Positions 3,602 through 58,778 of a stretch of DNA of 64,000 nt are shown one piece after another. Made by a program: the position numbers and the translations under genes. The notes beneath the pieces are model-generated. The model saw only the letters and a list, made by a program, of their open reading frames with translations, made no database searches and was not told the DNA's origin. Position 1 is the first letter of the stretch. Each line of letters begins with the position of its first letter. Source of the stretch: an uncultured Bacteroidales bacterium. Its GTDB lineage: Bacteria; Bacteroidota; Bacteroidia; Bacteroidales; VadinHA17. Where the stretch lies: positions 12,941-76,940 of the forward strand of contig CAVXUP010000008.1 of the NCBI GenBank assembly GCA_963765005.1, in the 5' to 3' direction.

Positions 3602-3809
3602 GTTTTGTTTCAGATTGGATTATTAAAATGCAATTTAGGCTCCCGCTGGGAAAAAGCGTTATATAATAATTGCAAAGACTTGCATATTTCATTGACATTT
3701 TGCACCATGGTGGATGTCGCCAGGCGTCAACCTTGCTTCATTACCGGACACTAAGTGCATTTAGGTTGTGATAGTAAGATTCTGAACAAATAATATGAAC
3801 AGAGAATAT

Positions 3810-5333: not shown

Positions 5334-5919
5334 TAAATACTGACGGATCGAATCCCATGGTACTTCCGGGTACAGTACCCATTCCGTCGGCAGTCATGTT
5401 GACTGGGGTAAAGGGACCATCCGGACGGCTTCCTTTGGCCACCATCGCTTCTCTGTTCCGGCCACGGCTGTGCGGGTAGAGGTAGTATTCCTTAGTGCCG
5501 TCTTTTCTTTTTACCTCGACGAGGTCAGGAGCATACATAACATCCCACTGTCCGCTGATCGGGTATGTAAATATTGGTCCTTCATCACGCCAGTCGGACA
5601 AGTCCTCCACAGGTGCCGACCAGGCCCTTATGTCCGGTCCGCAATAACTCTTAAATCTGACATCGTGCGATCCGATAATATAGATGCGGTATTTTCCCGG
5701 TTTGTCGGGATCCTCAAAAACACGCGGCTCTCCGTCGGGCAAATGCTCCCATAGCGGCAGATACGAATTGCCAGATGTACGGTATGTGGGTTTGGCAGAC
5801 CGCGGGTTGTTTTTCGCTTGATTATTGTCTCCTCTCGATTCTTTTACAGATAACACAAGCGTAAACACCAATAATAAAACTATTTGCGACCTTTTCAAAA
5901 CAGATTTAACTTTCCTCAT
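5302..5919 (-). CDS. GH43-family glycoside hydrolase, N-terminal fragment with signal peptide
   Basis: Likely ATG at 5919 (MRKVKSVLKRSQIVLLLVFTLVLS, a signal peptide). The GH43-like blades end prematurely at 5302. Confidence 0.8.
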   Translation of the reverse strand: MRKVKSVLKRSQIVLLLVFTLVLSVKESRGDNNQAKNNPRSAKPTYRTSGNSYLPLWEHLPDGEPRVFEDPDKPGKYRIYIIGSHDVRFKSYCGPDIRAWSAPVEDLSDWRDEGPIFTYPISGQWDVMYAPDLVEVKRKDGTKEYYLYPHSRGRNREAMVAKGSRPDGPFTPVNMTADGMGTVPGSTMGFDPSVFIEYVTNPERP

Positions 5920-6151
5920 TTTAATTTTTTTTACACCGCTTTTCGAATTTGTTTTTAGGAGAACCATGTATTCCTTTAGCGAAATTAATTGAATTGTTGA
6001 ATTGTCGAAACAATATTTTTCACGTATATTTAAATACATGAATAGGAAGTACTTTAAATGACCAGACTGATCAACTTTTATAAAAGAATTACAACTTATA
6101 ATGCAGCTTATTCGTAGTTTAAAATAATAAATTTAAGCAGGAGGCAAACCA

Positions 6152-21781: not shown

Positions 21782-22005
21782 GTCCGGATCAGCTCATTAC
21801 CTTTCATCCCTTCGGCCGGACACAATCATCAGAATGGTTCCATAACGAAACATGGCTCGATTTCAATATGTTTCAATCGGGCCACCGCAGGTACGATCAG
21901 GATACTTCAGGACTGGCTTACGGGGAAGATAACTGGAAATATGCTGTTGATGATTATGGTAAAACGCCGATTAAAGCCAACTCTCGATGGAGAACCTTCA
22001 TATGA
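21748..22005 (+). CDS. GH140-like glycoside hydrolase, fragment 2 of 3
   Basis: Continues the DUF4038 domain (ITFHPFGRTQSSEWFHNETWLDFNMFQSGH). The frame breaks again at the A3 run 21973-21975. Confidence 0.75.
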   Translation: MENYRSTIRQVSPDQLITFHPFGRTQSSEWFHNETWLDFNMFQSGHRRYDQDTSGLAYGEDNWKYAVDDYGKTPIKANSRWRTFI

Positions 22006-22552
22006 AGGCATTCCACAGGGTCTTCACGATCCGGCTCAGCCATACTGGACCGACTCAGATATCCGGCGTTACGCTTACTGGTCGGTATTTGCAGGTGGTT
22101 GCGGTTTTACCTATGGTCACAATGCCATAATGCAATTTCATAAGGAAGGCGATAAGGAATCCTCATACGGTGTTAAAGAAACCTGGGACACTGCTTTGAA
22201 CGCTCCGGGAGCATCTCAGATGAGATATCTGAAAGAGCTTATGCTTTCCCGGTCATATTTTGACAGGATCCCGGCGCAGGATCTTATTTCAGGCAGCCAG
22301 GGGGAAAAGTATGATTATCTTGCTGCGACGAGAGGCAAAGATTATGCTTTTATTTACACCTGCAACGGCAGTGTTTTGAATATTGACCTTGGAAAAACCA
22401 ATCTTCCGGGAATTAAAGCCTCATGGTATAATCCCAGGGATGGGAAATTTAATGATATCGGCGAGTTTAAAGCTGAAGGAATTAAAACTTTTGATCCGCC
22501 CGGAGACAGATCCCCAGGTAATGACTGGGTACTTGTACTGGATCGCAATTAA
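21941..22552 (+). CDS. GH140-like glycoside hydrolase, fragment 3 of 3 (includes a C-terminal collagenase-like binding domain)
   Basis: LDGEPSYEGIP...YAYWSVFAGGCGFTYGHN plus the C-terminal ASWYNPRDGKF...NDWVLVLD. Confidence 0.78.
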   Translation: MLLMIMVKRRLKPTLDGEPSYEGIPQGLHDPAQPYWTDSDIRRYAYWSVFAGGCGFTYGHNAIMQFHKEGDKESSYGVKETWDTALNAPGASQMRYLKELMLSRSYFDRIPAQDLISGSQGEKYDYLAATRGKDYAFIYTCNGSVLNIDLGKTNLPGIKASWYNPRDGKFNDIGEFKAEGIKTFDPPGDRSPGNDWVLVLDRN

Positions 22553-22558
22553 ACAATA

Positions 22559-22591
22559 GGAAGACGGAAGACCGAAGACCGAAGACCGAAG
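22559..22591. repeat. Tandem 7-mer array (GGAAGAC/CGAAGAC, about 4.7 copies)
   Basis: Read directly as ggaagac ggaagac cgaagac cgaagac cgaag. Begins 6 nt after the GH140 stop and is followed by tattttt. Confidence 0.9.
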
Positions 22592-22638: not shown

Positions 22639-23031
22639 ATGAAAAAATATTTATCTATCTGTTTTCTCCTGTTTTTCGCGACAACTTCCTGGTCACAGAA
22701 AAGTCAGAAAAACGTATCCTCTTCAGGCAAAACAGTTAAAGAGCACATTCGCCTTCCAGAACCAATCGACCCTCAGATAGTACAGGATCAGGATGACATG
22801 ACGTGGAATGATTATCATCCAATCCCGGGCAAAAACTGGGCAGACCCTTCACTTGTTCCGGAACGTAAATTCAGGATGGCACTTGTTGCAGTTGACTTCC
22901 CCGATCAGCCTTTCGTAATAACTCTTCCGAAGAATTCAGATCTTTTCGGCAACCCGCAGATTGATCCTGTTAAAAGAGAGAGATGTCGCGAAATTCTATT
23001 CCGCGTTCTGGCTCACGCCATCGGCGGTTAA
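22639..23031 (+). CDS. Secreted HExxH zinc metalloprotease (InhA/M6-like?), N-terminal fragment
   Basis: Signal peptide. The frame breaks at the A4 run 22972-22975, and the sequence continues in 22961-24649. Confidence 0.7.
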   Translation: MKKYLSICFLLFFATTSWSQKSQKNVSSSGKTVKEHIRLPEPIDPQIVQDQDDMTWNDYHPIPGKNWADPSLVPERKFRMALVAVDFPDQPFVITLPKNSDLFGNPQIDPVKRERCREILFRVLAHAIGG

Positions 23032-27265: not shown

Positions 27266-29038
27266 ATGAAATTGGCATACAAATATTTAATAGTATCAGT
27301 ACTTACAGGAATTCTGATCCTTTCAAATTCCTGTACTGAGGAATTTCTCACGAGAGAACCTCCCGGAGTTGTGGCAGGCTCTGTACTCCTGACCCCTGAC
27401 GGCATTGAAGCACTTCTTGTCGGGACTTACGGGGCTATAAGGGGGACGAGCCGCTTCGGAGGCGCCATGGGAACCGACTGGACCTACGGCAGCATCGCCT
27501 CCGATGATTGTTATGCCGGGACCAGCGCTGGAAGCTCATCTGACTATATTCATCTTGAGAGGTATGATCTTATGCCTGACAGCCCTTACCTGAGAGAAAG
27601 ATGGCGCGACTGCTACAACGGTATAGCCAGGGCAAATGCAACGCTTGAGAATCTTTCCGAAATCAGGAAAAAGGGAGCTGTCATCCCTGAGGCCAGAGCA
27701 TTACAGATAGAGGCAGAAGCAAGGTTCCTGAGAGCCTGGTTTCATTTTCAGGCAAACAAAATTTTTGAAAGAATCCCTTACATTAAGACCCCTGCCGAGT
27801 TAAGCCCCTTGCTCCCCGAGGAGGTGCCAAACACCGATCCGGCATGGGATGGAATCGAAGAGGACCTGACTTTCGCCATCGATAATCTGCCAGTCACCAA
27901 CCGGCCCGGGGAACCAGGCAGAGCTGATAAATATGCTGCAGAAGCAGTTAAGGCTCATGTTCACATGTTTCAGAAAGAGTTCAGCAAGGCAAAGGCGCTG
28001 CTTGATGACATTATTCTCAACGGAGGGTTTGAACTTGCTGACAATTTCTACGACAATTACGACATGACTCATGAGAATAATGTCGAGTCGATTTTCGAAA
28101 TCCAGGCATCAACAACTTCCACATCGAATTCATCTCTTGGGCTCTCCGGTTGTGTCTTCCACCAGAAGGGTCCTGCGAGTTGCGGAGGATGGGGATTTTT
28201 TCAGCCATCACAATGTCTGTTCGAAGCATTCCAGGTAACTCCCGGCGGATTACCGGTTATAGAGATTGAAAACCGCGAGCCGCTTACGAATGACATGGGT
28301 ATAGGAAGTACCGGAACCTTTATACCTACTTCTCATCTTCTCGATCCACGTGTTGACTGGACAATAGCACGACGCGGGATTGATTTTCTGGGCTGGGGCA
28401 TTCATCCGGGAAATTCATGGATAAGGGAACAAGATTACGGAGGGCCTTATATGACCAAAAAATTCATGCACTTCAAATCCGAGCAAAGTCTTAATTTATC
28501 AGGATCAGGTTTTGATAACGGCAAGAATTACAGGATCTATCGCCTTGCAAATATTCTGCTATGGCGAGCTGAGATTGCTGTTGAAGAAAATGATTACGAG
28601 CTTGCCAGGACACTTGTGAACAGGGTCAGGGAAAGGGCAAAAAACAGCAAGCCAGTAATGGGTCTTTGCACCAGCTATTCAAATCTTGAGAACAATCCAG
28701 CAGTAGATTATACAAAGCCTGCAGCGAACTATAAAGTTGAGCCCTATGCACCGGGGCATCCTGCATTTACATCGCAGAGTGAGGCGCGAAAAGCCGTGAG
28801 AATGGAGATCAGGCTGGAATTTGCAACTGAAGGGAATCGCTTTTTCGATCTGCGTCGCTGGGGTATTGACAATGAGGTCATTAACGACTATATCGCACGC
28901 GATTCAAAATTCAGGAAATACCTGAAAGGCGCTGTCTATGATCCTGAAAAAAATGACTACTGGCCGTTGCCGATCGACCAGGTAAAGTTTCAGAAAGATG
29001 TACTGGTACAGGATTCCTCCTATATGCAGAAAATTTAG
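27266..29038 (+). CDS. RagB/SusD-family nutrient-binding outer-membrane lipoprotein
   Basis: Lipobox LSNSC at ATG 27266. TPR-like SusD blocks: EARFLRAWFHFQ, YRLANILLWRAE, RLEFATEGNRFFDLRRWG. The track start at 27146 overlaps alkA and is rejected. Confidence 0.92.
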   Translation: MKLAYKYLIVSVLTGILILSNSCTEEFLTREPPGVVAGSVLLTPDGIEALLVGTYGAIRGTSRFGGAMGTDWTYGSIASDDCYAGTSAGSSSDYIHLERYDLMPDSPYLRERWRDCYNGIARANATLENLSEIRKKGAVIPEARALQIEAEARFLRAWFHFQANKIFERIPYIKTPAELSPLLPEEVPNTDPAWDGIEEDLTFAIDNLPVTNRPGEPGRADKYAAEAVKAHVHMFQKEFSKAKALLDDIILNGGFELADNFYDNYDMTHENNVESIFEIQASTTSTSNSSLGLSGCVFHQKGPASCGGWGFFQPSQCLFEAFQVTPGGLPVIEIENREPLTNDMGIGSTGTFIPTSHLLDPRVDWTIARRGIDFLGWGIHPGNSWIREQDYGGPYMTKKFMHFKSEQSLNLSGSGFDNGKNYRIYRLANILLWRAEIAVEENDYELARTLVNRVRERAKNSKPVMGLCTSYSNLENNPAVDYTKPAANYKVEPYAPGHPAFTSQSEARKAVRMEIRLEFATEGNRFFDLRRWGIDNEVINDYIARDSKFRKYLKGAVYDPEKNDYWPLPIDQVKFQKDVLVQDSSYMQKI

Positions 29039-29150
29039 ACGCACGACGCAGGGCACACGACAAACGACGCACGACACAGGGCATACGATGCAGGAATAAC
29101 GACACAGGGCGAGCAACGTGGATCGTGTGTCGTGAGCCGTGCATCCTGCG
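29039..29150. repeat. Degenerate oligo-repeat patch (ACGAC[GA]CAGGG / CACGAC units) whose last ~28 nt are inverted
   Basis: Read directly as ...acgacgcaggg...acgacacaggg...acgatgcagga...acgacacaggg... then tcgtgtgtcgtgagccgtgcatcctgcg. Starts 1 nt after the SusD stop. Confidence 0.8.
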
Positions 29151-29175
29151 AAAAAACAAATTACGAATCGGATAT

Positions 29176-29733
29176 ATGAAACCTATATATTTTTCAGATC
29201 AGTCAGCCTTCAGAAAGTGGCTCGAGAAAAACCATAAAAAAGAAAAGGAACTTATTGTAGGCTTTTACAAGAAGGAGAGCGGCAAGCTTAACATGACATG
29301 GTCACAGTCTGTCGATCAGGCTCTTTGTTTTGGATGGATCGACGGGATCAGAAGATCGATAGATAAGGACAGCTACTGTATACGCTTTACTCCACGAAGG
29401 ACTACAAGTGTATGGAGTAAGGTAAACATAAACAAGGTTGAAGAGCTGACAAAGAAGGGCTTAATGCAACCTGCAGGGCTTGAAATATACAAACTCAGGA
29501 AAGAAGAAAAGTCAGGGATCTTCAGTTACGAAAGCGAGGCTAAACAACTTGAAAAGGATTTTGAAAACAGGTTCAAGGCATGTAAAAGTGCCTGGGAGTT
29601 TTTTACACATCAAGCCCCTTCTTATCAAAAAATGATTATTCACTGGATACTCGCTGCCAAGCAGGAAGCAACAAAGGCAAGACGACTCGAAAAGGTTATT
29701 GCTGAAAGCGAAAAGCAGAAGCGGATATTCTGA
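29176..29733 (+). CDS. YdeI/OmpD-associated family protein
   Basis: FRKWLEKNH...GFYKKESGK..MTWSQSVDQALCFGWIDGIRRSIDKDSYCIRFTPRRTTSVWS is the family signature. ATG at 29176. Confidence 0.85.
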   Translation: MKPIYFSDQSAFRKWLEKNHKKEKELIVGFYKKESGKLNMTWSQSVDQALCFGWIDGIRRSIDKDSYCIRFTPRRTTSVWSKVNINKVEELTKKGLMQPAGLEIYKLRKEEKSGIFSYESEAKQLEKDFENRFKACKSAWEFFTHQAPSYQKMIIHWILAAKQEATKARRLEKVIAESEKQKRIF

Positions 29734-29765: not shown

Positions 29766-29810
29766 GGCACACGACACACGACGCACGACATACGGCACGC
29801 GACACACGGC
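29766..29810. repeat. CACGAC-type oligo-repeat patch
   Basis: ggcacacgacacacgacgcacgacatacggcacgcgacacacggc. Its cacgacacacga (29769-29780) is the exact reverse complement of tcgtgtgtcgtg (29123-29134). Confidence 0.8.
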
Positions 29811-29827
29811 AAAAGGCTTATGCGTTA

Positions 29828-38280: not shown

Positions 38281-39831
38281 ATGGCTCAGGAAGATGTTTT
38301 CAGGAAACTGGTTGCACACTGTAAGGAATACGGGTATGTTTTTCCCTCAAGTGAGATCTATGACGGCTTAAGCGCAGTGTATGATTATGGTCAATATGGT
38401 GTTGAACTCAAAAACAATATAAAGAAATACTGGTGGGACAGCATGGTCCTTCTCAATGACAATATTGTAGGACTCGACTCGGCAATATTCATGCATCCCA
38501 CTATCTGGAAGGCATCAGGACATGTCGATGCATTCAATGATCCGCTTATTGACAACAAGGACTCAAAAAAGAGATACCGCGCCGATGTTCTTATCGAAGA
38601 GCACCTTGCAAAGATCGAGGACAAGATCACCAAGGAGGTTGAAAAGGCAAGGGAGCGATTCGGTGAGGCTTTTGATGAGAAGAAATTCAGGGAAACAAAC
38701 CCGAGGGTTGTCGCTAACCAGGCAAAGATTGATGAAATTTCTTCAAGGTTTGCGAAGGCTCTTAACGAAACCGACCTTCCTGAGATCAAGCAGATAATTA
38801 TAGATAATGAAATTGTCTGTCCGATTTCCGGAACCCGTAACTGGACCGATGTCAGGCAATTCAACCTGATGTTCTCAACAGAGATGGGATCGACCTCGGA
38901 AGGCGCAAGCAAAATTTATCTTCGTCCCGAGACAGCCCAGGGGATCTTTGTCAATTTTCTTAATGTCCAGAAGACCGGGAGGATGAAGCTTCCGTTCGGA
39001 ATTGCCCAGATCGGGAAAGCCTTCAGAAACGAGATTGTTGCCAGGCAGTTTATCTTCAGGATGCGGGAGTTTGAGCAGATGGAGATGCAGTTCTTTGTTC
39101 AGCCGGGAACAGAACTCGGTTGGTTTGCCAGATGGAAGGAAATAAGGATGAAGTGGCATCAGGCTCTCGGCTTCGGCAGCGAAAACTATCGTTTCCACGA
39201 CCATGTGAAACTTGCTCACTATGCCAACGCAGCGACAGATATCGAATTCCGTTTCCCGTTCGGGTTCAAGGAGGTTGAAGGGATACATTCGAGAACCGAT
39301 TATGATCTGAAACAACATCAGGAGTACAGCGGAAAGAAGATGCAATATTTCGATCCCGAAAAAGGAGAATCATATGTGCCATTTGTAATTGAAACATCTA
39401 TCGGCGTTGACAGGATGTTCCTTCAGGTGATTTCCGCAGCATATTGCGAAGAGGAGCTTAAGAAGGAGGACGGAACAACCGACACAAGGGTTGTTCTCCG
39501 GCTTCCATCCTTCCTTGCACCGGTAAAGCTTGCTGTAATGCCTCTTGTCAAGAAGGACGGTCTTCCCGAGATCGCCGAAAAGATTGTGCATGACCTGAAG
39601 TTTGACTTTAACTGCCAGTACGACGACAAGGATTCTATAGGCAGGCGATACAGGAGACAGGATGCCATCGGAACACCATATTGCATTACTATAGATCATC
39701 AGACTATCGAAGACAACAGCGTCACTATCAGATATCGCGACTCGATGGAACAGGAGCGCGTAAGTATTGAGAAACTTCAGTCGATCATAAAAGAAAAAGT
39801 CTCTATTCAAAGCTTGCTTAAAAAGCTGTAG
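38281..39831 (+). CDS. glyQS: Glycine--tRNA ligase (homodimeric class II)
   Basis: 516 aa with class II motifs and a C-terminal anticodon-binding domain. The stop TAG lies inside the first unit of the 9-mer array. Confidence 0.95.
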   Translation: MAQEDVFRKLVAHCKEYGYVFPSSEIYDGLSAVYDYGQYGVELKNNIKKYWWDSMVLLNDNIVGLDSAIFMHPTIWKASGHVDAFNDPLIDNKDSKKRYRADVLIEEHLAKIEDKITKEVEKARERFGEAFDEKKFRETNPRVVANQAKIDEISSRFAKALNETDLPEIKQIIIDNEIVCPISGTRNWTDVRQFNLMFSTEMGSTSEGASKIYLRPETAQGIFVNFLNVQKTGRMKLPFGIAQIGKAFRNEIVARQFIFRMREFEQMEMQFFVQPGTELGWFARWKEIRMKWHQALGFGSENYRFHDHVKLAHYANAATDIEFRFPFGFKEVEGIHSRTDYDLKQHQEYSGKKMQYFDPEKGESYVPFVIETSIGVDRMFLQVISAAYCEEELKKEDGTTDTRVVLRLPSFLAPVKLAVMPLVKKDGLPEIAEKIVHDLKFDFNCQYDDKDSIGRRYRRQDAIGTPYCITIDHQTIEDNSVTIRYRDSMEQERVSIEKLQSIIKEKVSIQSLLKKL

Positions 39832-39860
39832 AGGCTGTAGAGGCTGTAAAGGCTGTAGAG
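39825..39860. repeat. Tandem 9-mer array (GCTGTAGAG, 4 copies)
   Basis: gctgtagag gctgtagag gctgtaaag gctgtagag. Supplies four in-frame stop codons after glyQS. Confidence 0.92.
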
Positions 39861-39890
39861 GGAAGAAGTGGTAAATTAAAATCAGTGAGA

Positions 39891-40247
39891 ATGGCCCATC
39901 CATGGAAAGATCTGATTGTGTGGCAAAAAGCTCATAAATTTGTACTTGAAATTTACAAGTTAACAGATAGTTTTCCTGAAAAAGAAAGATTTGGATTGAT
40001 TCAGCAAATCAGAAAATCGTCTGCCTCAACTGCAGCAAATATTGTTGAAGGAAAATCAAAAAATACTGATAAGGAATTTTTAGCTTTCCTTTATAATTCA
40101 CGAGGTTCACTGGAAGAAACACGCTATCATTTACTTCTTTCAAAAGACTTAGGTTATATCAAAGAAAATGATTATGATTCATTGGAACAACTTGCAACAG
40201 AAGTCAGTTTCCTTCTAAATAAACTTATCTCATCCATAACAAGATGA
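39891..40247 (+). CDS. Four-helix-bundle protein (23S rRNA intervening-sequence protein / Avd family)
   Basis: WKDLIVWQKAHKFVLEIYKLTDSFPEKERFGLIQQIRKSSASTAANIVEG...SRGSLEETRYHLLLSKDLGYI is the family pattern. Confidence 0.88.
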   Translation: MAHPWKDLIVWQKAHKFVLEIYKLTDSFPEKERFGLIQQIRKSSASTAANIVEGKSKNTDKEFLAFLYNSRGSLEETRYHLLLSKDLGYIKENDYDSLEQLATEVSFLLNKLISSITR

Positions 40248-41635
40248 CCTCCTCAAAGCATCATAATAACTCTTCTCAAAAACAATCAGTCCCAGCCGAT
40301 CCTATATCTTCCGGACCCTCCTCCGCTTCTACAGCCTCTACCGCCTTTACCGCCTCTACAGCTATTCCTTCCTCCAAGGTCCTGATAGTCACGTACTATT
40401 GGCCACCAAGCGGCGGAGCGGGAGTTCAGCGTTGGCTCAAGTTCTCGAAATACCTTCCTGAATTCGGATGGGAGCCTGTAATTCTCACAATAGATCCCGA
40501 TTTTGCAGCTTATCCTGTAACTGACAGTTCCCTTGCTTCAGATGTGCCGGAAAACCTCAGAGTATTTAAGACAAGGGCAACTGATTATTTCAGCATCTAT
40601 AAAAAGGACAGGTCAAAAATCCCCTCGGCCGGTTTCGCAAATAGTGTAAATAATACACTTACAGGGAAAATTATGAGATTCATCAGGGGGAATTTCTTTA
40701 TTCCCGACCCGAGAAAAGGGTGGAACAGCTTTGCTTTCAAAAAAGCCTGTGAACTGATCTCTTCTGAAGGCATCAAACATGTAATCACTACAAGTCCCCC
40801 TCACTCCACTCAGCTCATTGGCCTCAGGCTAAAGAAAAAGTTTCCGGGAATAAAATGGATTACAGATCTGCGCGATCCCTGGACAGACATCTACTATTAT
40901 GAGCAGTTCTACCCTACCCTGCTGTCGAAATTCATTGATTCGCGTCTTGAAAAAAAAGTGCTTAAAAATGCCGACACAATAATCACAGTGGGAGAAACTC
41001 TGAAAAAGCACTTCGCAGCAAAAGAGCCTGAAGCTGAGAGGAAGACCACTGTGATTCACAATGGTTTTGATGAAGAAGATTTCAAAGAAATAAAGGCAGC
41101 CGCCCCTTCGCGATTCACCCTGACTTACGTCGGAACTCTCTCTGATATCTACCCGGTGGAAGGACTGCTGGAAGCATTAAAAAAACTACAGTCTGAAGGA
41201 ATTGATTTTATTCTGCGTTTTGTCGGGACAGTATCACCGAATTCGATGGCACTGATAAAGTCATCGCTTCCGGAAAAAAATATTGAATTTATCCCATATG
41301 CAAAACACAATGAAGCCATCCGTCATATGGCGAACTCGTCTATTCTTTTGTTAATAATACCTTCGCATAAAAGCAATAAAAGCATAATAACAGGGAAACT
41401 GTTTGAGTACCTGGGTTCAGGGAGACCGGTCCTTTGCATAGGGCCTTCCGACGGTGATGCCGCACACATAATTGAACTGTCAGCCGGGGGAAGAACAGTT
41501 GATTATTATAATTCCAAAGCTGCCGGTTCTTATATACGAGAGATAATGAATAAAAGCTATTCTGTTCAGAATTCAGGAAAAATCAGATTCTCTAGGAGGA
41601 ATATAACAGGTCAGCTGGCGGAGGTGATCCGGTAG
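40244..41635 (+). CDS. GT4-family glycosyltransferase with an atypical 44-aa Ser/Thr/Ala-rich N-terminal extension
   Basis: The conserved N-terminus KVLIVTYYWPPSGGAGVQRWLKF starts at codon 45. The ATG at 40244 overlaps the four-helix-bundle stop (ATGA). Confidence 0.85.
   Translation: MTSSKHHNNSSQKQSVPADPISSGPSSASTASTAFTASTAIPSSKVLIVTYYWPPSGGAGVQRWLKFSKYLPEFGWEPVILTIDPDFAAYPVTDSSLASDVPENLRVFKTRATDYFSIYKKDRSKIPSAGFANSVNNTLTGKIMRFIRGNFFIPDPRKGWNSFAFKKACELISSEGIKHVITTSPPHSTQLIGLRLKKKFPGIKWITDLRDPWTDIYYYEQFYPTLLSKFIDSRLEKKVLKNADTIITVGETLKKHFAAKEPEAERKTTVIHNGFDEEDFKEIKAAAPSRFTLTYVGTLSDIYPVEGLLEALKKLQSEGIDFILRFVGTVSPNSMALIKSSLPEKNIEFIPYAKHNEAIRHMANSSILLLIIPSHKSNKSIITGKLFEYLGSGRPVLCIGPSDGDAAHIIELSAGGRTVDYYNSKAAGSYIREIMNKSYSVQNSGKIRFSRRNITGQLAEVIR
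40319..40363. repeat. Tandem 9-mer array, 5 copies, inverted orientation (CTCTACAGC type)
   Basis: ctcctccgc ttctacagc ctctaccgc ctttaccgc ctctacagc. Lies inside the 5' coding region of the GT4 gene, where it is translated as ASTASTAFTASTA. Confidence 0.9.
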
Positions 41636-41665: not shown

Positions 41666-42868
41666 ATGAACATCGGAGTTGTTGTTGACAATGAGCTTAA
41701 TGATGACAAAAGGGTTCTCAGGGAGATCTCGATCCTGAAGGACAACGGATTTAAAATCTTTGTCCTGTGCTTTGGCTTCGACGGCAAAGCGTACCCCGAA
41801 ATTGAAGGAGTAAATGTTACGAGGATCAGAATCAGCAGAAAGCATAAGAACACTCTCTTCTTTTTCCAGAACACAATTGCGCTTTATGCGGCTCTCTGGA
41901 GCTCTGAAATAAGAAAATTCATTGAACTGAACAGAATTGATCTGATTCATGCTCATGACCTTTATATGTCGGAAGCTGCCTATACAGGAATTAAAAAAAG
42001 CAAAAAAAGCATACCACTAATCCTTGACCTTCATGAGAATTATCCCTTTGCTGTCCGGACCTATAACTGGACCAAAGGGTTTTTAAGAAGCCTGATTTCG
42101 CGTCCTAAAAAATGGAGCTCGCTCGAGGCCCGGTACCTCAGCTGCCCCGACAGGATAATTGTGCTAAGCCGGGAATTCGGCGAAGATCTTCGTACACGAT
42201 ATGATTTTCTGACCCCTGAAAAAATATGGCCGTTCCCCAATGTTCCCGATCTTGAACATATGGAGAGTTTCCCTGTCGACAGCTCGCTGGTGAAATTTAA
42301 AAAGAAGGCTCCGGTTTTGTTTTACTTCGGGGTTATTGCCGAACGCAGAGGGATTTTTGAGGCTCTTGATGCTTTCAGTCAGGTAATTGCCGGAGGTCAT
42401 AAGGCACAGTTCCTTGCAATCGGGCCGATTGACAAAAAAGACCGGGAAAGATTTGAAAGCTATCTTAGCATTCCTTCTCTTAAAGAATTGATAATCTACA
42501 TACCGTGGATAAACCTGTCGGAACTTCCTTCATACCTCGATGCCAGCGATATCTGCCTTGCCCCCTTTCACAAAAACCCACAGCATGAGTCAGGCGTAGC
42601 AAATAAGATTTACGACTATATGCTGGGAAGCAGACCCATAATTGCATCAGACTGCAGGCCGCAAAAAAACCTTATTGAAAGACATCAGTGCGGCATTGTT
42701 TACAATAACCTGTCTGAATTTCACGATTCTCTTGTTAAGCTGCTTGATGATGAATCGCTCAGACGAAAAATGGGAGAGAACGGGTACAGGGCTGTCATAA
42801 GTCACTATAATACAAAAATTGTGAAGGATGACCTTTTATCTTGTTACAAAGGGTTAACCGGTGAATAA
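41666..42868 (+). CDS. GT4-family glycosyltransferase
   Basis: GT-B fold with the C-terminal E...GVANKIYDYM block. Confidence 0.85.
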   Translation: MNIGVVVDNELNDDKRVLREISILKDNGFKIFVLCFGFDGKAYPEIEGVNVTRIRISRKHKNTLFFFQNTIALYAALWSSEIRKFIELNRIDLIHAHDLYMSEAAYTGIKKSKKSIPLILDLHENYPFAVRTYNWTKGFLRSLISRPKKWSSLEARYLSCPDRIIVLSREFGEDLRTRYDFLTPEKIWPFPNVPDLEHMESFPVDSSLVKFKKKAPVLFYFGVIAERRGIFEALDAFSQVIAGGHKAQFLAIGPIDKKDRERFESYLSIPSLKELIIYIPWINLSELPSYLDASDICLAPFHKNPQHESGVANKIYDYMLGSRPIIASDCRPQKNLIERHQCGIVYNNLSEFHDSLVKLLDDESLRRKMGENGYRAVISHYNTKIVKDDLLSCYKGLTGE

Positions 42869-42880
42869 AAAAAGCAGTTA

Positions 42881-44014
42881 ATGAAGATCTTAATCCTCAC
42901 TCACTCCTATCCCGACTCCGTTCAGAAATGGCGGGGAATTTTCATAAGGGAACAGGCAGAAGCTCTGAGCAGCATTCACGAAGTGACAGTTGTCTATTTC
43001 AGGGTTGACTATTCAGTGTTTGCTCCTTTCTCCGGTTACAGCTTTGTGAAGAAAGAAAGAGGCAGGCTGACTGAATTTGAGGTAACAACAACAAGGTCGC
43101 TTCCGGTGATAACCCAGCTCAAATACTTAAAGGATACCTGCCGTTTCGTTGAAAAAGAGATCCTTAAAACTTCAAAGCCGGATATAATTCACTCGCATCT
43201 CTCCTACCCGGCAGGAATTCTTGGGGTTATAATTGGCAGGAGAAAAAAAATTCCATCGGTTCTTACTGAACATACCTGGATCAAAAAGTATTTCAGAAGC
43301 TTAATACATAAAAGATGTGTTCTTCATGCCCTGAAAAACTCTGATATTGTTATTGCAGTGAGTGAGGCTTTGAAGGAGGATATTCTCAGCTATGGGGGAA
43401 AAAATGCAGAAGTAGTGCCAAATGTGATTGATACTGACAAATTTCCCCTTTCCGGAAAGGGAGGTGGAAAGACCCTGAATCTTGGAATACTTGGCGGGAT
43501 GAGCAACTACAGGAAGGGGCTTGACATTTTGCTGCAGGCAGTTGCGCTGGTTCAAAACCCGGATGTTATTGTTCACATCGGAGGTGACGGAACTCTGCTT
43601 ACAACATTCAGAAAGCTGGCCGCTGAACTGGGAATAGAAAAAAAATGCATCTTCTACGGTGAGATTTTGCAGACCGACCTTGTGAAATTTTATTCAAAAC
43701 TTGATCTATTTGTCCTGGCAAGCCGTGATGAGACCTTTGGGGTCGTTGTTGTGGAAGCAATGGCATCAGGGCTTCCGGTTATCGCGACAAGATGCGGCGG
43801 ACCGGAGGAGATCATTACAAAGGAGACCGGGCTTCTTGTTGAAAAGGAAAATCCGGCTGAATTAGCTAAGGCAATAGATTATATCTCGGAAACCATCGGG
43901 ACTTATGACCACAACTCAATAAGAAAATATGCTGTTGAAAAGTATGGACAGAAAGCCTTTGTTGAGAAGATGACAAGGCATTATGGAGAAATTTTCTTCA
44001 GTTGTCAGATTTAA
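42881..44014 (+). CDS. GT4-family glycosyltransferase
   Basis: ETFGVVVVEAMASGLPVIATRCGGPEEII (EX7E region). Confidence 0.9.
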   Translation: MKILILTHSYPDSVQKWRGIFIREQAEALSSIHEVTVVYFRVDYSVFAPFSGYSFVKKERGRLTEFEVTTTRSLPVITQLKYLKDTCRFVEKEILKTSKPDIIHSHLSYPAGILGVIIGRRKKIPSVLTEHTWIKKYFRSLIHKRCVLHALKNSDIVIAVSEALKEDILSYGGKNAEVVPNVIDTDKFPLSGKGGGKTLNLGILGGMSNYRKGLDILLQAVALVQNPDVIVHIGGDGTLLTTFRKLAAELGIEKKCIFYGEILQTDLVKFYSKLDLFVLASRDETFGVVVVEAMASGLPVIATRCGGPEEIITKETGLLVEKENPAELAKAIDYISETIGTYDHNSIRKYAVEKYGQKAFVEKMTRHYGEIFFSCQI

Positions 44015-54700: not shown

Positions 54701-56563
54701 AGTAACTATACGGAAAGTATCCGTCAGGTTAGCCAGCTTGTCAGTAATATACTGATCGTTAAGCAGACCGCTTGTCGGAGAGGTATAGCCTGTGACAAGC
54801 CCTGATGAAGTTACTGTATATTTAAAGCTTATTGCTCCCGTAGTGAATATGCTCGGACTCTGAAGCCGGATACTTGTGTTTGTGCTGTCGCACTGAGGGG
54901 CAGGATCGACAGGAACAGGGAAAATTCTCGGCTGCGGATTGATCCGGACAGTCAGCGAGAATGGAATTCCCAGAGCACATTCGGGTCCTGAATCTCCCGG
55001 CCGGATATGCGGGGTAAAATTGTAGATAATATTGCCCACAACATCATTGCTGTTGACAATAATATCGGTGAGTGCAGCAACCCCTGTGGCTGTCTGATTT
55101 GTAAGACCTGCTGAAAGGGTACCCGTTATACCTCCGGGATAAACAACCGGATCGAGATTGTAATACCATGTTGCGCCAGGATTGACAATATTCAGATTTG
55201 TGATGTCAAACGTGGCAGGCTGCTCGTAGCACAATTCCAGATCAGCGTCTACAAGGATCCTGGGTCTTGGGTTTATTTTTATTTCCAAAAACACTTCTAC
55301 TCCATCTGCACAATCATCGTCGCCGTCTCCGGGTCGTATATGCGGAATAAATCTGTATCCTACTGTCTGCACGTCATTTGTTGTGTTGACAATATTATCA
55401 GTAAGTGCTCCGATACCAGTGGCGGTCTGGTCTGTCAGACCTGTCGGCCAGCTGCCGGTGACTCCCAAAGGATAGGTTGTTTCTATATCGTAGTACCAGG
55501 TAGTTCCGGTATTGACTATGTTCAGCTTGGTGATATCAAATTTTGCAGGTCCATCATAGCATAACTCCGTATCAGTAGTGACGGCGATCTTTGGCTGCGG
55601 GTTGATGACTACCTCGACGGTAATCGCAACGCCTGTTTCACATTCATCCCCTCCGTCGCCCGGACGTATATGTGGAATGAACTTATAGGTAACAGTCTTA
55701 TAGTCATTGGTAGTGTTTACAAGATTATCAGTAAGTGCTCCAATACCGGTAGCGGTCTGATCGGTGAGACCCGTCGGCCAGCTGCCGGTGACTCCCAAAG
55801 GATAGGTTGTTTCTACATCGTAGTACCAGGTAGTTCCGGTATTGACTGTATTCAGCTTGGTGATATCGAATACAGCAGACCCTGTATAACAAAGCTCAGG
55901 ATCAGTGGTGACTGCTATCTTTGGCTGCGGGTTGATGACGATATCGATGGTAACCTCAACGCCTGCTTCACATTCGTCCCCTCCGTCGCCCGGACGTATA
56001 TGAGGAATGAACTTGTAGGTAACAGTCTTAAAGTCATTTGTAGTGTTTACAAGATTATCAGTAAGTGCTCCAATACCAGTGGCGGTCTGGTCTGTCAGAC
56101 CTGTCGGCCAGCTGCCGGTGACTCCCAAAGGATAGGTTGTTTCTATATCGTAGTACCAGGTAGTTCCGGTATTGACTATGTTCAGCTTGGTGATATCAAA
56201 TTTTGCAGGTCCATCATAGCATAACTCCGTATCAGTAGTGACTGCGATCTTTGGCTGCGGGTTGATCACTATCTCGACGGTAATCTCAACGCCTGCTTCA
56301 CATTCGTCCCCTCCGTCGCCCGGACGTATATGTGGAATGAACTTATAGGTAACAGTCTTAAAGTCATTGGTAGTGTTTACAAGATTATCAGTAAGTGCTC
56401 CAATACCGGTAGCGGTCTGATTGATTAACCCTGCCGACAGGGTACCGCTAACGCCCAAAGGATAAACAACAGGTGCCAGATCGTAGTACCAGGTAGTTCC
56501 GGTATTGACTCGTATTGACTGTTCAGATTTGTGATATCGAATACCGCAGACCCTGTATAACAA
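51728..56563 (-). CDS. Giant SprB-like T9SS adhesin, C-terminal fragment (110-aa modules, diverged PKD-like modules, about 10 SprB repeats, type-B CTD)
   Basis: CTD: NAISPNGDLINDVWNI...VINRWGATIW...WDGRSGGKVLPIDSYHYMI. SprB repeats of the type CNGGNDGYINITINGG...YSWTGPDGFTS...AGTYTVTVRDNTGC. Confidence 0.9.
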   Translation of the reverse strand: MLYRVCGIRYHKSEQSIRVNTGTTWYYDLAPVVYPLGVSGTLSAGLINQTATGIGALTDNLVNTTNDFKTVTYKFIPHIRPGDGGDECEAGVEITVEIVINPQPKIAVTTDTELCYDGPAKFDITKLNIVNTGTTWYYDIETTYPLGVTGSWPTGLTDQTATGIGALTDNLVNTTNDFKTVTYKFIPHIRPGDGGDECEAGVEVTIDIVINPQPKIAVTTDPELCYTGSAVFDITKLNTVNTGTTWYYDVETTYPLGVTGSWPTGLTDQTATGIGALTDNLVNTTNDYKTVTYKFIPHIRPGDGGDECETGVAITVEVVINPQPKIAVTTDTELCYDGPAKFDITKLNIVNTGTTWYYDIETTYPLGVTGSWPTGLTDQTATGIGALTDNIVNTTNDVQTVGYRFIPHIRPGDGDDDCADGVEVFLEIKINPRPRILVDADLELCYEQPATFDITNLNIVNPGATWYYNLDPVVYPGGITGTLSAGLTNQTATGVAALTDIIVNSNDVVGNIIYNFTPHIRPGDSGPECALGIPFSLTVRINPQPRIFPVPVDPAPQCDSTNTSIRLQSPSIFTTGAISFKYTVTSSGLVTGYTSPTSGLLNDQYITDKLANLTDTFRIVTYRLVPVSPLGCADGPAENVRVTVNPTPRATPVNLMPVICSGGITDIELKSPTFMTSGTIKFDYTVRFTGVPGDIIGNSDPKNDLDPGHKMGYSYKNIAEGSRIDSVSSVLYNIIPRVVNGPACKPGRIFTSEVQVHPKTLKRIDELKSFTCDLTAGLAALKVILTKGADPYQVRWTGPVGFQSNDVEIYYLNQGPYHVVVTDNNMCRDSLDKTITQIPARPRIFPSPIPPLNNHISCPGFSDGSLRAQVSAGISPPYQFWVIYNSTDVIGSGVFSGNFNPSNPNTYKIYNNLRSGSYRIRIIDANGCEFFENAELLEPDPITIQFQNTNVSCLGYSNGSSLAIPSGGNGGYIYQWSAATGLPLGVSSNEALLDSVPAGKYYIRVFDVLGCVADLDSVTLTELPGMTASPAVISRSAHGNTNVSCNGGNDGYINITINGGVAPLFYSWTGPDGFTSTLEDISGIKAGTYTVTVRDNTGCIKLPVDTYTLTEPPVITVTVTPSPVPNGPFNISCPGGTGGIYISASGGTGGTYTYIWTTSDGSGIVPGHKDQVALTAGTYRIAVQDSNSCEIVNYITLTQPAPITGIFDVTDITCQSAGANDGELSVTGAGGVGPYTYHWLNGSTADKITGLTEGYHIVDITDANGCTGRDSARVNRPPDLLFDYLPSDYNGYAISCTGLSNGTIDITPSSGTAPFVYNWTSSTGFTSTERNITGLKAGDYYLTILDSKYCTVTDTITLDEPGIPEIKFILSESNDGGFNLNCMGDSTGTIAVETENFAGAISYYWSDGNTDQIRTGLPAGQYDLIVSDANNCSAASSVTLIQPDSIRLAFSVIDPSCPDRPDGAIQLAVTGGVISTDYTYKWSDNSSTQNLPAVAEGDFSVIVTDFNGCTATDSLFVKAINETCLIIHNAISPNGDLINDVWNIENSDLYPEMEVKVINRWGATIWVSEKGYPKPWDGRSGGKVLPIDSYHYMIDVHRGGRIIVGNITIVK
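52020..54260 (-). repeat. SprB-repeat region (about 10 diverged units of roughly 75-85 aa)
   Basis: Recurrent C.G..DG.I......G..PY.Y.W........T...I..L.AG.Y.V.V.D..GC pattern. Confidence 0.75.
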
Positions 56564-56799
56564 AGCTCAGGATCAGTGGTGACCGCTATCTTTGGCTGAG
56601 GGTTGATGACTACCTCGATAGTAACCTCAACGCCTGCTTCACATTCGTCCCCTCCGTCGCCCGGACGTATATGTGGAATGAACTTATAGGTAACAGTCTT
56701 AAAGTCATTGGTCGTGTTGACTAGATTATCTGTAAGCGCTGCAATACCGGTGGCGGTCTGATCGGTGAGACCCGTCGGCCAGCTGCCGGTGACTCCCAA
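56425..56799 (-). CDS. Giant adhesin, internal fragment (one 110-aa module)
   Basis: Same module sequence as its neighbours. Separated from them by indels at 56511-56522 and 57097-57116. Confidence 0.8.
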   Translation of the reverse strand: MGVTGSWPTGLTDQTATGIAALTDNLVNTTNDFKTVTYKFIPHIRPGDGGDECEAGVEVTIEVVINPQPKIAVTTDPELCYTGSAVFDITNLNSQYESIPELPGTTIWHLLFILWALAVPCRQG

Positions 56800-56915
56800 A
56801 GGATAGGTTGTTTCTACATCGTAGTACCAGGTAGTTCCGGTATTGACTGTATTCAGATTTGTGATATCGAATACCGCAGACCCTGTATAACAAAGCTCAG
56901 GATCAGTGGTGACCG

Positions 56916-58778
56916 CTATCTTTGGCTGAGGGTTGATGACGATCTCGATGGTAACCTCAACGCCTGTTTCACATTCGTCCCCTCCGTCGCCCGGACGTAT
57001 ATGTGGAATGAACTTATAGGTAACAGTCTTAAAGTCATTGGTCGTGTTGACAAGATTATCAGTAAGTGCTGCAATACCGGTGGCGGTCTGGTCTGTGGCC
57101 AGACCTGTCGGCCAGCGGTGACTCCCAAAGGATAGGTTGTTTCTATATCGTAGTACCAGGTAGTTCCGGTATTGACTATGTTCAGCTTGGTGATATCAAA
57201 TTTTGCAGGTCCATCATAGCATAACTCCGTATCAGTAGTGACTGCGATCTTTGGCTGCGGGTTGATCACTATCTCGACGGTAATCTCAACGCCTGTTTCA
57301 CATTCATCCCCTCCGTCGCCCGGACGTATATGTGGAATGAACTTATAGGTAACAGTCTTAAAGTCATTGGTCGTGTTGACTAGATTATCTGTAAGCGCTG
57401 CAATACCGGTGGCGGTCTGATCGGTGAGACCCGTCGGCCAGCTGCCGGTGACTCCCAAAGGATAGGTTGTTTCTACATCGTAGTACCAGGTAGTTCCGGT
57501 ATTGACTGTATTCAGCTTTGTGATATCGAATACCGCAGACCCTGTATAACAAAGCTCAGGATCAGTGGTGACCGCTATCTTTGGCTGCGGGTTGATGACG
57601 ATCTCGATGGTAACCTCAACGCCTGTTTCACATTCGTCCCCTCCGTCGCCCGGACGTATATGAGGAATGAACTTATAGGTAACAGTCTTAAAGTCATTTG
57701 TAGTGTTTACAAGATTATCAGTAAGTGCTCCGATACCAGTGGCGGTCTGGTCTGTCAGACCTGTCGGCCAGCTGCCGGTGACTCCCAAAGGATAGGTTGT
57801 TTCTATATCGTAGTACCAGGTAGTTCCGGTATTGACTATGTTCAGCTTGGTGATATCAAATTTTGCAGGTCCATCATAGCATAACTCCGTATCAGTAGTG
57901 ACTGCGATCTTTGGCTGCGGGTTGATGACTACCTCGACGGTAATCTCAACGCCTGTTTCACATTCGTCCCCTCCGTCGCCCGGACGTATATGTGGAATGA
58001 ACTTATAGGTAACAGTCTTAAAGTCATTGGTCGTGTTGACTAGATTATCAGTAAGTGCTGCAATACCGGTGGCGGTCTGATCGGTGAGACCCGTCGGCCA
58101 GCTGCCGGTGACTCCCAAAGGATAGGTTGTTTCTACATCGTAGTACCAGGTAGTTCCGGTATTGACTATGTTCAGCTTTGTGATATCGAATACCGCAGAC
58201 CCTGTATAACAAAGCTCAGGATCAGTGGTGACTGCCATCTTTGGCTGAGGGTTGATGACGATCTCGATGGTAACCTCAACGCCTGTTTCACATTCGTCCC
58301 CTCCGTCGCCCGGACGTATATGAGGAATGAACTTATAGGTAACAGTCTTAAAGTCATTTGTAGTGTTGACTAGATTATCAGTAAGCGCTGCAATACCGGT
58401 GGCGGTCTGATCGGTGAGACCCGTCGGCCAGCTGCCGGTGACTCCCAAAGGATAGGTTGTTTCTATATCGTAGTACCAGGTAGTTCCGGTATTGACTATG
58501 TTCAGCTTGGTGATATCAAATTTTGCAGGTCCATCATAGCATAACTCCGTATCAGTAGTGACTGCGATCTTTGGCTGCGGGTTGATCACTATCTCGACGG
58601 TAATCTCAACGCCTGTTTCACATTCATCCCCTCCGTCGCCCGGACGTATATGTGGAATGAACTTATAGGTAACAGTCTTAAAGTCATTGGTCGTGTTTAC
58701 AAGATTATCAGTAAGTGCTCCAATACCGGTAGCGGTCTGATTGATTAACCCTGCCGACAGGGTACCGCTAACGCCCAA
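56916..58778 (-). CDS. Giant adhesin, internal fragment (about 5.5 modules)
   Basis: Near-identical 110-aa modules. The 3' tail of this ORF is out-of-frame read-through after 57116. Confidence 0.8.
   Translation of the reverse strand: MGVSGTLSAGLINQTATGIGALTDNLVNTTNDFKTVTYKFIPHIRPGDGGDECETGVEITVEIVINPQPKIAVTTDTELCYDGPAKFDITKLNIVNTGTTWYYDIETTYPLGVTGSWPTGLTDQTATGIAALTDNLVNTTNDFKTVTYKFIPHIRPGDGGDECETGVEVTIEIVINPQPKMAVTTDPELCYTGSAVFDITKLNIVNTGTTWYYDVETTYPLGVTGSWPTGLTDQTATGIAALTDNLVNTTNDFKTVTYKFIPHIRPGDGGDECETGVEITVEVVINPQPKIAVTTDTELCYDGPAKFDITKLNIVNTGTTWYYDIETTYPLGVTGSWPTGLTDQTATGIGALTDNLVNTTNDFKTVTYKFIPHIRPGDGGDECETGVEVTIEIVINPQPKIAVTTDPELCYTGSAVFDITKLNTVNTGTTWYYDVETTYPLGVTGSWPTGLTDQTATGIAALTDNLVNTTNDFKTVTYKFIPHIRPGDGGDECETGVEITVEIVINPQPKIAVTTDTELCYDGPAKFDITKLNIVNTGTTWYYDIETTYPLGVTAGRQVWPQTRPPPVLQHLLIILSTRPMTLRLLPISSFHIYVRATEGTNVKQALRLPSRSSSTLSQR

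Follow-up and report, generated by a model that had tools for sequence, protein, structure and literature searches.

Introduction

Why does a gene of the '23S rRNA intervening sequence (IVS) protein' family lie between two protein-coding genes, enclosed by two arrays of short repeats in opposite orientation? The question is raised by a stretch of 64,000 nucleotides (the window) from an uncultured Bacteroidales bacterium of the VadinHA17 lineage (GenBank assembly GCA_963765005.1, contig CAVXUP010000008.1, positions 12,941 to 76,940 of the forward strand). Here a small gene for a four-helix-bundle (FHB) protein and its two flanking arrays, or arms, separate glyQS, which encodes glycine–tRNA ligase (GlyRS), from a glycosyltransferase (GT) operon. 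The segment is a cassette of a known type, the IVS/FHB cassette, found in this case outside rRNA and with its arms re-phased into the reading frames of its host. The features of the locus are listed below, with positions counted from the first letter of the window.

38281-39831, + strand: glyQS, glycine–tRNA ligase, 516 aa (NF003211, E 2.3e-200)
39825-39860, + strand: left arm, four tandem 9-mers, every unit phased to give an in-frame stop for glyQS
39832-40375, + strand: inserted segment, about 544 bp, defined against empty sites; it replaces an ancestral 0-2-nt spacer plus the ATG-AAx of the GT gene
39834-39861, + strand: predicted long-range stem, 5' half, pairing with 40335-40362
39891-40247, + strand: FHB gene, 118 aa, 23S-rRNA-IVS protein/TIGR02436 family
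40244-40378, + strand: acquired N-terminal extension of the GT; it starts at an ATG that shares bases with the FHB stop (ATGA) and includes the translated right arm (..SASTASTAFTASTAIPSSK)
40318-40362, + strand: right arm, five reverse-complement 9-mers
40335-40362, + strand: predicted long-range stem, 3' half, inside the GT reading frame
40379-41635, + strand: GT4-family glycosyltransferase, conserved core (VLIVTYYWPP..), from Pfam Glyco_transf_4 and Glycos_transf_1 and from alignment

Architecture of the cassette

The left array is composed of 9-mers in the order GCTGTAGAG, GCTGTAGAG, GCTGTAAAG and GCTGTAGAG (Tandem Repeats Finder, TRF; period 9, 4.1 copies, score 67), and a degenerate unit, GCTTAAAAA, stands just before it at 39816-39824. 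These units and coordinates reproduce those of a first-pass annotation made from the sequence alone. The right array reads CTCCTCCGC, TTCTACAGC, CTCTACCGC, CTTTACCGC and CTCTACAGC; the five units had been recognised previously, at a position (40319-40363) that proves to be one base off. Its innermost, gene-proximal unit, CTCCTCCGC (40318-40326), is degenerate, with 3 mismatches to CTCTACAGC. Complementarity between the arms amounts to 87% over 39 nt, in agreement with an initial estimate of about 31 matches in 36, to 93% over the 28 nt of 39834-39861 and 40335-40362, and to 74% over 47 nt. Across the window the 9-mer is matched 18 times with at most one mismatch, against 8.85 matches expected, a number that none of 100 shuffles reached; 7 of the 18 fall within the two arrays. 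The FHB gene is the sole open reading frame (ORF) between the arms. The first-pass annotation had this right, together with the protein family, and gave the length as 119 aa, where 118 aa is correct.

Insertion at the glyQS–GT junction

Two sets of relatives bear on the origin of the segment. An alignment of the GT core, scanned against metagenome contigs, gave 80 loci (L079-L158), with the junction visible in 73, and a scan with the FHB protein, at one genome per species, gave 13 further filled loci (L001-L012 and L075). The junction is empty in 71 of the 73 evaluable loci: glyQS ends in ..LLKKL*, the GT starts 0-2 nt later and there is no cassette. The consensus of these junctions is AAAAAGCTTTAAGATGAATAAGGTT, encoding K K L stop, M N K V. 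L133 is the sole locus with a cassette among the 73, the one remaining locus, L099, having a different hairpin without an ORF, and all 14 filled relatives (L001-L012, L075 and L133) have the order glyQS, arm, FHB, arm, GT. An insertion between glyQS and the GT operon had been proposed from the window, with empty junctions to be sought in relatives; these have now been found, and the window segment is an insertion into a 0-2-nt gap.

A minority of lineages have inherited the cassette vertically. In 12 filled loci FHB identity (55-84%) rises and falls with that of GlyRS (74-92%), with a Spearman correlation of 0.87 (Mantel p 0.0005), higher than the 0.68 found between GT and GlyRS, and FHB is better conserved than the adjoining GT. 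Such co-divergence speaks against the scattered filled sites having arisen by repeated site-specific homing. Filled loci are nevertheless closer to empty than to filled relatives (86% vs 76% identity for L002, for example), and the neighbour-joining tree is star-like and poorly resolved. The simplest reading is one old insertion followed by vertical descent and several later clean losses; on a single insertion, several losses are implied by the absence of the cassette from closer relatives of several filled lineages. Loss would probably occur through bypass of the hairpin during replication, and flanking DNA may have been co-transferred, or alleles replaced by homologous recombination at the site. 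The arrays persist at the glyQS cassette even though silent sites are saturated. In L075 (2998-3174), which has the same glyQS/GT context, the FHB ORF is fragmented; the two 9-mer arrays survive there, as does the GT frame with its ATGA start.

Some filled loci have peculiarities of their own. The left arms of L011 (2629-2957) and L012 (2714-2958) run to 27-37 units (245-329 nt) and their right arms to 3-7 units; the left units are GCGGTAGAG and the right units correspond to GCTTTAGAG, with two mismatches per unit. In L003 the GT frame (3462-5924) has 820 aa, the first two glycosyltransferases being apparently fused.

Arms within the host reading frames

The left array begins inside glyQS: its first 7 nt coincide with the final 7 nt of that gene, TAG stop included. 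As the first-pass annotation had stated, the array supplies this stop and three further stops in frame, the tail reading ..KKL*RL*RL*RL*. In every filled locus with a readable tail the glyQS stop is likewise the TAG or TAA of the first left-arm unit, repeated in frame (L*RL*RL*).

The right arm is involved with its neighbour in another way, which the earlier annotation overlooked. In the window the GT ORF starts at the ATG at 40244 and is read through the right array, which encodes ..SASTASTAFTASTA.. in this frame. In 11 of 14 filled loci (the window and 10 of 13 relatives) the GT has no in-frame start other than the ATG that overlaps the stop of FHB, and in these the right arm is open in the GT frame and encodes ASK/AST/AFT repeats. 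The overlapping ATG is lacking in L004, L005 and L008; in these three loci the arm is closely followed by a retained ATG-AAx-(K)VLI start. The two starts are mutually exclusive across the 14 loci (11 vs 3), and this complementary distribution implies that the right arm is now coding sequence in most lineages, the window included. Two more GT genes, at 41666-42868 and 42881-44014, lie 3' of the first, which makes three GT4-type genes in all.

Among the FHB loci the 9-nt period is found in this clade only, and a period of 9 nt means that both flanking reading frames are kept under slippage. The unit GCTNTARAG corresponds to the last 7 nt of glyQS plus AG. It is possible that the 9-mer arrays were seeded from the target sequence, or that they were homogenised from a coding-constrained first unit, with the right arm following; under either origin the left and right arms co-evolve. 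The arms of the glyQS clade have been re-phased to 9 nt, one of them ending an essential gene and the other forming coding sequence of the neighbouring gene.

The FHB protein

The FHB protein of the window matches PF05635 over the whole profile (positions 1-106 of 106, E 6.7e-39, 132.8 bits with a cut-off of 33.8) and also TIGR02436 (E 5.2e-37, 126.4 bits with a cut-off of 24). To our knowledge the FHB or '23S rRNA IVS protein' family has no known function outside diversity-generating retroelements (DGRs). An alternative GTG start at 39885 would make the protein 120 aa long; we take it to be 118 aa from the ATG because all orthologues begin with MAHPWKDL or MPHPWKDL, apart from one with MGHPWKDL. 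The family motif GxxRxxxSxxxNxxE (Lin 2006, quoted by Zhang 2013) is present as GLIQQIRKSSASTAANIVEG. The nearest solved structure is that of the four-helix bundle XCC0516 (PDB 2GSC, E 1.2e-15), which is described as a homopentamer (Lin 2006, as given in a citing paper). The protein is under purifying selection, with dN/dS of 0.04-0.17 among orthologues at dS of 1-3.7.

The family is large, with 17,430 cluster representatives at 50% identity matching at E up to 1e-3. The window holds no second copy; a weak tblastn match at 29305-29394 was rejected as such because it lies antisense within a + strand ORF of the YdeI/OmdA family. There is no exact match on record for the FHB or GlyRS protein sequences, no defence-system family in PADLOC matched FHB at E up to 0.01, and no close relatives were found in viral contigs.

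In P0001, P0006 and P0014 the gene calls fuse FHB in frame to a downstream type IV prepilin (..NNTQNKG|FTLIELI..; PF07963) through a low-complexity linker, and the inter-domain region is likewise read through. Prepilin peptidase would be expected to remove all sequence before G|F in these fusions.

Inverted arrays around FHB genes in other phyla

The surroundings of 78 FHB homologues, with 35-82% identity, were analysed from Bacteroidota, Ignavibacteriota, Planctomycetota, Cyanobacteriota, Acidobacteriota, Verrucomicrobiota, the Candidate Phyla Radiation and Proteobacteria. Conserved rRNA motifs are absent from all of these loci (L001-L078). The reverse-complement score between upstream and downstream sequence lies above that of every shuffle in 57 of 73 loci, with a median arm score of 17 where direct, cross-locus and shuffled controls have 8.5. 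TRF finds arrays on both sides of the FHB gene in 48 of 70 loci; those of period 7-9 occupy 20.7% of the bases within 150 nt of the gene and 0.87% of those elsewhere, a 24-fold enrichment. In 38 loci the gene is enclosed by a pair of arrays of the same period whose units are reverse complements with at most one mismatch. The first-pass annotation had suggested looking for such brackets around other family genes of the genome, and most of the family members analysed here have one. The inverted-array bracket is a hallmark of the FHB family. We found no description in the literature of inverted arrays around non-rRNA FHB genes, and their generality across the family seems not to have been reported.

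Units are 7, 8 or 9 nt long, and in relatives mostly 7-mers with the core YAGRA (heptamer logo Y(0.92) A(0.93) G(0.95) R(0.89) A(0.87) N N); upstream and downstream arms alike have a median length of 34 nt. A single arm configuration is used: about 70% of units have YAGRA pointing inward, 5' to 3' on each strand, and virtually none have it the opposite way. A reading of this orientation as 'polarity relative to the gene' was rejected, an inverted-repeat pair being identical from both strands. Both neighbours are co-directional with the FHB gene in 52 of 66 loci. Relative to the upstream stop, left arms begin at about -10 to +13 nt; the end of the right arm often coincides with the downstream ATG. 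On plasmid pNPUN01 of Nostoc punctiforme PCC 73102 (1617-1982, with arms at about 1559-1614 and 1964-2000), for example, the order is TAA-a-[TCAGGAG/TCAGAAT x8]-aa-ATG..FHB..TGA, with this TGA lying inside [ATTCTGA CTCCTGA..]-aatt-ATG.

The bracket is not universal, since L159 (Nostoc sp. PCC 7120 plasmid alpha, NC_003276 3776-4126) has a downstream array of CTTCTGC/CCTCTGC and no recognisable upstream array. The FHB gene of L159 is flanked by transposase genes.

Hairpins without an ORF, with canonical CAGGAGT-type arms and loops of 50-85 nt, occur at junctions neighbouring FHB cassettes:

L160, 836-954: mini hairpin element
L057, 4310-4424: mini hairpin element
L072, 2117-2230: mini hairpin element
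L067, 3795-3928: mini hairpin element

These resemble short ORF-less IVSs or derivatives of the kind known as miniature inverted-repeat transposable elements (MITEs). The first-pass annotation had counted arrays without the ORF as a finding that would speak against it; such arrays do exist, as short hairpin derivatives, and they fit the IVS picture. The loops of two Nostoc mini hairpins have a common inner palindrome, TGAATAgg..ccTATTCA. An ORF-less 7-mer hairpin is also present at the same glyQS–GT junction in L099 (180-330), where the glyQS TAG is followed by TGCTAGG TGCTGGG TGCTGGT.., a loop of about 40 nt and then CCAGGAA CCAGGAC CCAGAAC. The arm configuration of this hairpin is opposite to that of all FHB cassettes.

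Predicted pairing of the arms and possible action at the RNA level

When 39800-40400 is folded, the stem between 39834-39861 and 40335-40362 appears in both the minimum free energy and the centroid structure (z -2.96; none of 20 shuffles as stable). It pairs over 11+8+7 bp with two single mismatches, and about 8 further pairs lie further in. Across the family the median duplex energy is -64.6, compared with -47.5 in shuffles (median z -3.2), and in 45 of 71 loci the sense strand has a slight advantage in stability over the antisense. No Rfam family matched 39300-40900 at permissive E-values. A scan for sigma-70 promoters and intrinsic terminators, with a tool unsuited to Bacteroidota, found none on the + strand within the cassette.

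We read the segment as an old hairpin insertion of the IVS type that acts through its transcript. An FHB gene, probably promoter-less, with two inverted arrays became wedged between the glyQS stop and the ATG of the first gene of the GT operon in an uncultured Bacteroidales lineage, and would be co-transcribed with glyQS and that operon. The arms would then pair into a stem of at least 26 bp, looping out the FHB gene and reuniting the stop and start regions of the host. This stem could be a substrate of RNase III, or could otherwise modulate translation and stability across the junction, while FHB would be translated and the GT would now depend on it through translational coupling. By analogy with rRNA IVSs, RNase III processing might uncouple the glyQS and GT mRNAs. 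Taken as a whole, this reading is in our judgement evenly balanced between being right and being wrong.

Several observations weigh against it. Mismatches in the sense-strand arms show no excess of G·U (66 vs 65 overall, 11 vs 15 in the best arms), and the mirrored order of variable unit positions gives no signal, in a test that is underpowered. In the 11 filled loci with the ATGA start the GT start codon lies inside the loop, so that after RNase III cleavage of the right arm the GT coding region would be left without its start, and the effect would not be a simple uncoupling of the two mRNAs. The arms of L010-L012 and L007 are at most about 75% complementary. The conserved YAGRA core and the invariant configuration suggest sequence-specific recognition beyond a plain stem. 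The cassette is also missing from closer relatives of several filled lineages, and is therefore dispensable. On account of the lack of G·U bias, the fixed core and configuration, the relaxed complementarity and the severance of the GT, two rival explanations are kept at appreciable weight.

Alternative explanations

The first of these takes the arms to be tandem protein-binding sites, in which about five YAGRA units are bound, one per subunit, by a pentameric FHB protein or by some other factor. The protein would act in the manner of the Bacillus protein TRAP, binding its own transcript or DNA and either autoregulating translation or competing with stem formation. This would account for a Y-A-G-R-A core conserved across phyla with positions 6-7 free, and for a spacer that extends from 2 to 4 nt between 7-mer and 9-mer while the core TAGAG is kept, although the 8-mer units of two Bacteroidales loci (TAAGAAGT) fit the core poorly. 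The median arm of 34 nt equals about five heptamers on both sides, and a homopentamer is the form described for the nearest solved homologue, 2GSC (Lin 2006, via the citing paper); the family is moreover related to Avd, a nucleic-acid- and reverse transcriptase-binding protein. Binding of the repeats by FHB is nevertheless putative, and the Coxiella burnetii IVS is kept though its protein seems not to be made (PMC4990558). The invariant arm configuration and the lack of G·U bias also suit protein binding, whereas the inverted layout and the matched unit types on the two sides are more simply explained by pairing. The ORF-less mini hairpins are compatible with action in trans and do not require it. 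On balance we think this explanation unlikely.

The second holds that the arms are DNA-level terminal inverted repeats of an element that is, or formerly was, mobile, comparable to transposon/MITE pairs or to pairs of REPINs (repetitive extragenic palindromic doublets forming hairpins) and RAYTs (REP-associated tyrosine transposases). FHB cassettes would be its gene-carrying form and the ORF-less hairpins its derivatives, with the arms at the glyQS locus as relics. Unrelated loci in many phyla share this architecture, as do conjugative plasmids of cyanobacteria, and FHB genes are reported in cas operons and among strain-specific genes; at the glyQS locus, by contrast, the cassette has long co-diverged with its host. 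The arms keep a fixed inward-reading orientation, as transposon ends do, and show no G·U bias, yet the cassette encodes no transposase or recombinase, and its boundaries with empty sites show no target-site duplication, although an enzyme might act on it in trans. Mini elements of the same unit type in the same operons, the second, different 7-mer mini element at the glyQS–GT junction in L099 and the resemblance of the empty-site TAGGATG/TAAGATG to one unit would all follow from mobility, while close relatives were not found in viral contigs. The survival of the arrays at saturated silent sites speaks for a present function or constant renewal and against a relic. Like protein binding, mobility has in our view a small share of the probability.

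It is very improbable that the arrays are functionless, slippage-prone microsatellites that arose on both sides by chance: copy number does differ widely, reaching 37 units in L011, the intergenic DNA of prokaryotes commonly contains heptamer arrays (Mori 2019, PMC6344855) and other heptamer arrays in the window are unlinked to FHB, but the 24-fold enrichment beside FHB genes, the reverse-complement arrays of equal period in 38 loci, the core and configuration conserved across phyla and the persistence of arrays at dS above 1 all contradict it. An origin of the FHB gene as the Avd component or remnant of a DGR is rejected as hardly credible, since the matches to Avd models are weak (bAvd PF22296 35.4 bits with a cut-off of 40, NF033474 36 bits with a cut-off of 80, PHROG 'Avd protein of DGR' E 1.6e-9), the inserted segment consists of the arms and one ORF with no reverse transcriptase, template repeat or variable repeat, and the neighbours are glyQS, the GT genes and two upstream minus-strand ORFs, the last two not scanned against family libraries.

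A broader proposal would join the hairpin reading to the binding of repeats. FHB genes and their inverted YAGRA arrays would make up a widespread, self-contained hairpin system, with the gene-carrying cassettes as autonomous and the ORF-less mini hairpins as non-autonomous forms, in which a pentamer reads about five units of RNA or DNA; by spreading into operon junctions and rRNA loops the system would have given rise to a substantial share of the heptamer arrays, with the 23S IVS as its rRNA-resident case. We put this forward as speculation and consider it quite improbable in its entirety.

Other repeats in the window

Heptamer arrays in direct orientation (29038-29110 and 29766-29811, units GACGCAC/CACGACA) surround a + strand gene of the YdeI/OmdA family at 29173-29733 (PF13376, E 8e-16). 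The arrays occupy the gaps that separate this gene from a SusD-like gene, with its stop at 29038 where the array begins, and from an M28 peptidase gene on the minus strand. The window therefore has a second small gene bracketed by arrays, with a geometry and a unit unlike those of the FHB cassette. A solitary array of GAAGACC x4.6 lies at 22560-22591, between ORFs at 21941-22552 and 22639-23031, with no inverted partner in the window. Two long tandem repeats, at 55373-59219 (period 330 nt x11.6, 86% matches) and 59819-62764 (period 267 nt x11.0, 73%), are presumed to be repeat-domain coding sequence.

Comparison with known systems

A stereotyped cassette ties together rRNA IVSs, the FHB genes scattered in operons, including cas operons, and at least part of the abundant intergenic heptamers (Mori 2019, PMC6344855). 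The hypotheses can be tested in model strains such as Nostoc punctiforme, through RNase III processing at the stems, binding of the repeats by the protein and clean loss of the cassette.

Co-transcribed intergenic hairpin repeats are known from several bacteria, and include the Correia elements of Neisseria, which are cut by RNase III, enterobacterial repetitive intergenic consensus sequences (ERIC, or intergenic repeat units, IRU), and repetitive extragenic palindromes (REP) in bacterial interspersed mosaic elements (BIME) or REPINs with their RAYT genes. Like FHB cassettes, these have inverted arms at gene junctions, form a stem in mRNA and come in gene-carrying and gene-less versions, and the flanking of RAYT genes by their own repeats recalls FHB genes and their arrays. 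FHB cassettes differ in that their arms are tandem arrays of 7-9-nt units instead of a unique palindrome, and in their distribution across phyla. Their cargo also differs from that of RAYT-type elements, being a four-helix-bundle protein without a known catalytic motif. TRAP, a ring-shaped homo-oligomer that binds tandem short RNA repeats, (G/U)AG, with a conserved core and free spacers, offers an analogy only; its fold is unrelated, it has 11 subunits where FHB would have 5, and binding of repeats by FHB is hypothetical.

The DGR accessory protein Avd has the four-helix-bundle fold and distant sequence similarity in common with the FHB protein of the window. We know of no report of Avd genes flanked by inverted arrays of short units. 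Avd sits in a DGR, whereas the FHB segment of the window has no reverse transcriptase, template or variable repeats. Both 2GSC and Avd are described as pentamers (for 2GSC, Lin 2006 as cited by a later paper).

Among the intergenic repeats of prokaryotes, tandem heptamers are reported to be the most abundant, and 'no clear clue' is seen to what they do (Mori 2019, PMC6344855); period-7 intergenic arrays, among them the short tandemly repeated repetitive (STRR) sequences of cyanobacteria, are abundant in Nostoc and many other taxa (PMC6344855). These reports concern arrays on their own, whereas in FHB cassettes the arrays are inverted pairs around an FHB gene or a short loop. FHB genes have also been reported inserted inside cas operons (Zhang 2013) and among strain-specific genes.

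The classical counterpart of the window element is the 23S rRNA IVS with an S23p/FHB ORF, as in Leptospira and Coxiella, which belongs to the same protein family, PF05635 (Ralph & McClelland 1993; PMC4990558). The IVS of Coxiella burnetii has a PF05635-family ORF and a 28-bp terminal stem and is cleaved by RNase III (Warrier 2016, PMC4990558). Its ORF is reported to be decaying and probably untranslated, yet the IVS is kept, and its 5' arm consists of AGAAGA and two or three tandem GACAGAT heptamers, the copy number varying between strains (PMC4990558). The first-pass annotation had recognised the IVS-type architecture of one small family ORF with inverted arms, and the tandem heptamers and RNase III cuts of Coxiella bear this out. 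In both cases a single small ORF lies inside terminal inverted repeats that form a long stem, presence among relatives is sporadic, and the 5' arm carries tandem short repeats, 7-mers in Coxiella and four 9-mers in the window. They differ in location, the classical IVS lying in a helix of 23S (or 16S) rRNA, where it takes the place of a loop, and the window element at a junction of protein genes in an operon, and only in the latter do the arms overlap host frames, as the glyQS stop and the N-terminal extension of the GT. Strong purifying selection acts on the FHB gene of the window, in contrast to the reported decay of the Coxiella ORF, and RNase III cleavage, demonstrated in Coxiella, may by analogy occur in the window element. 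Read in register, however, GACAGAT becomes CAGATGA, which fits the YAGRANN consensus of the family, and the rRNA IVS therefore looks like one habitat of the same type of cassette.

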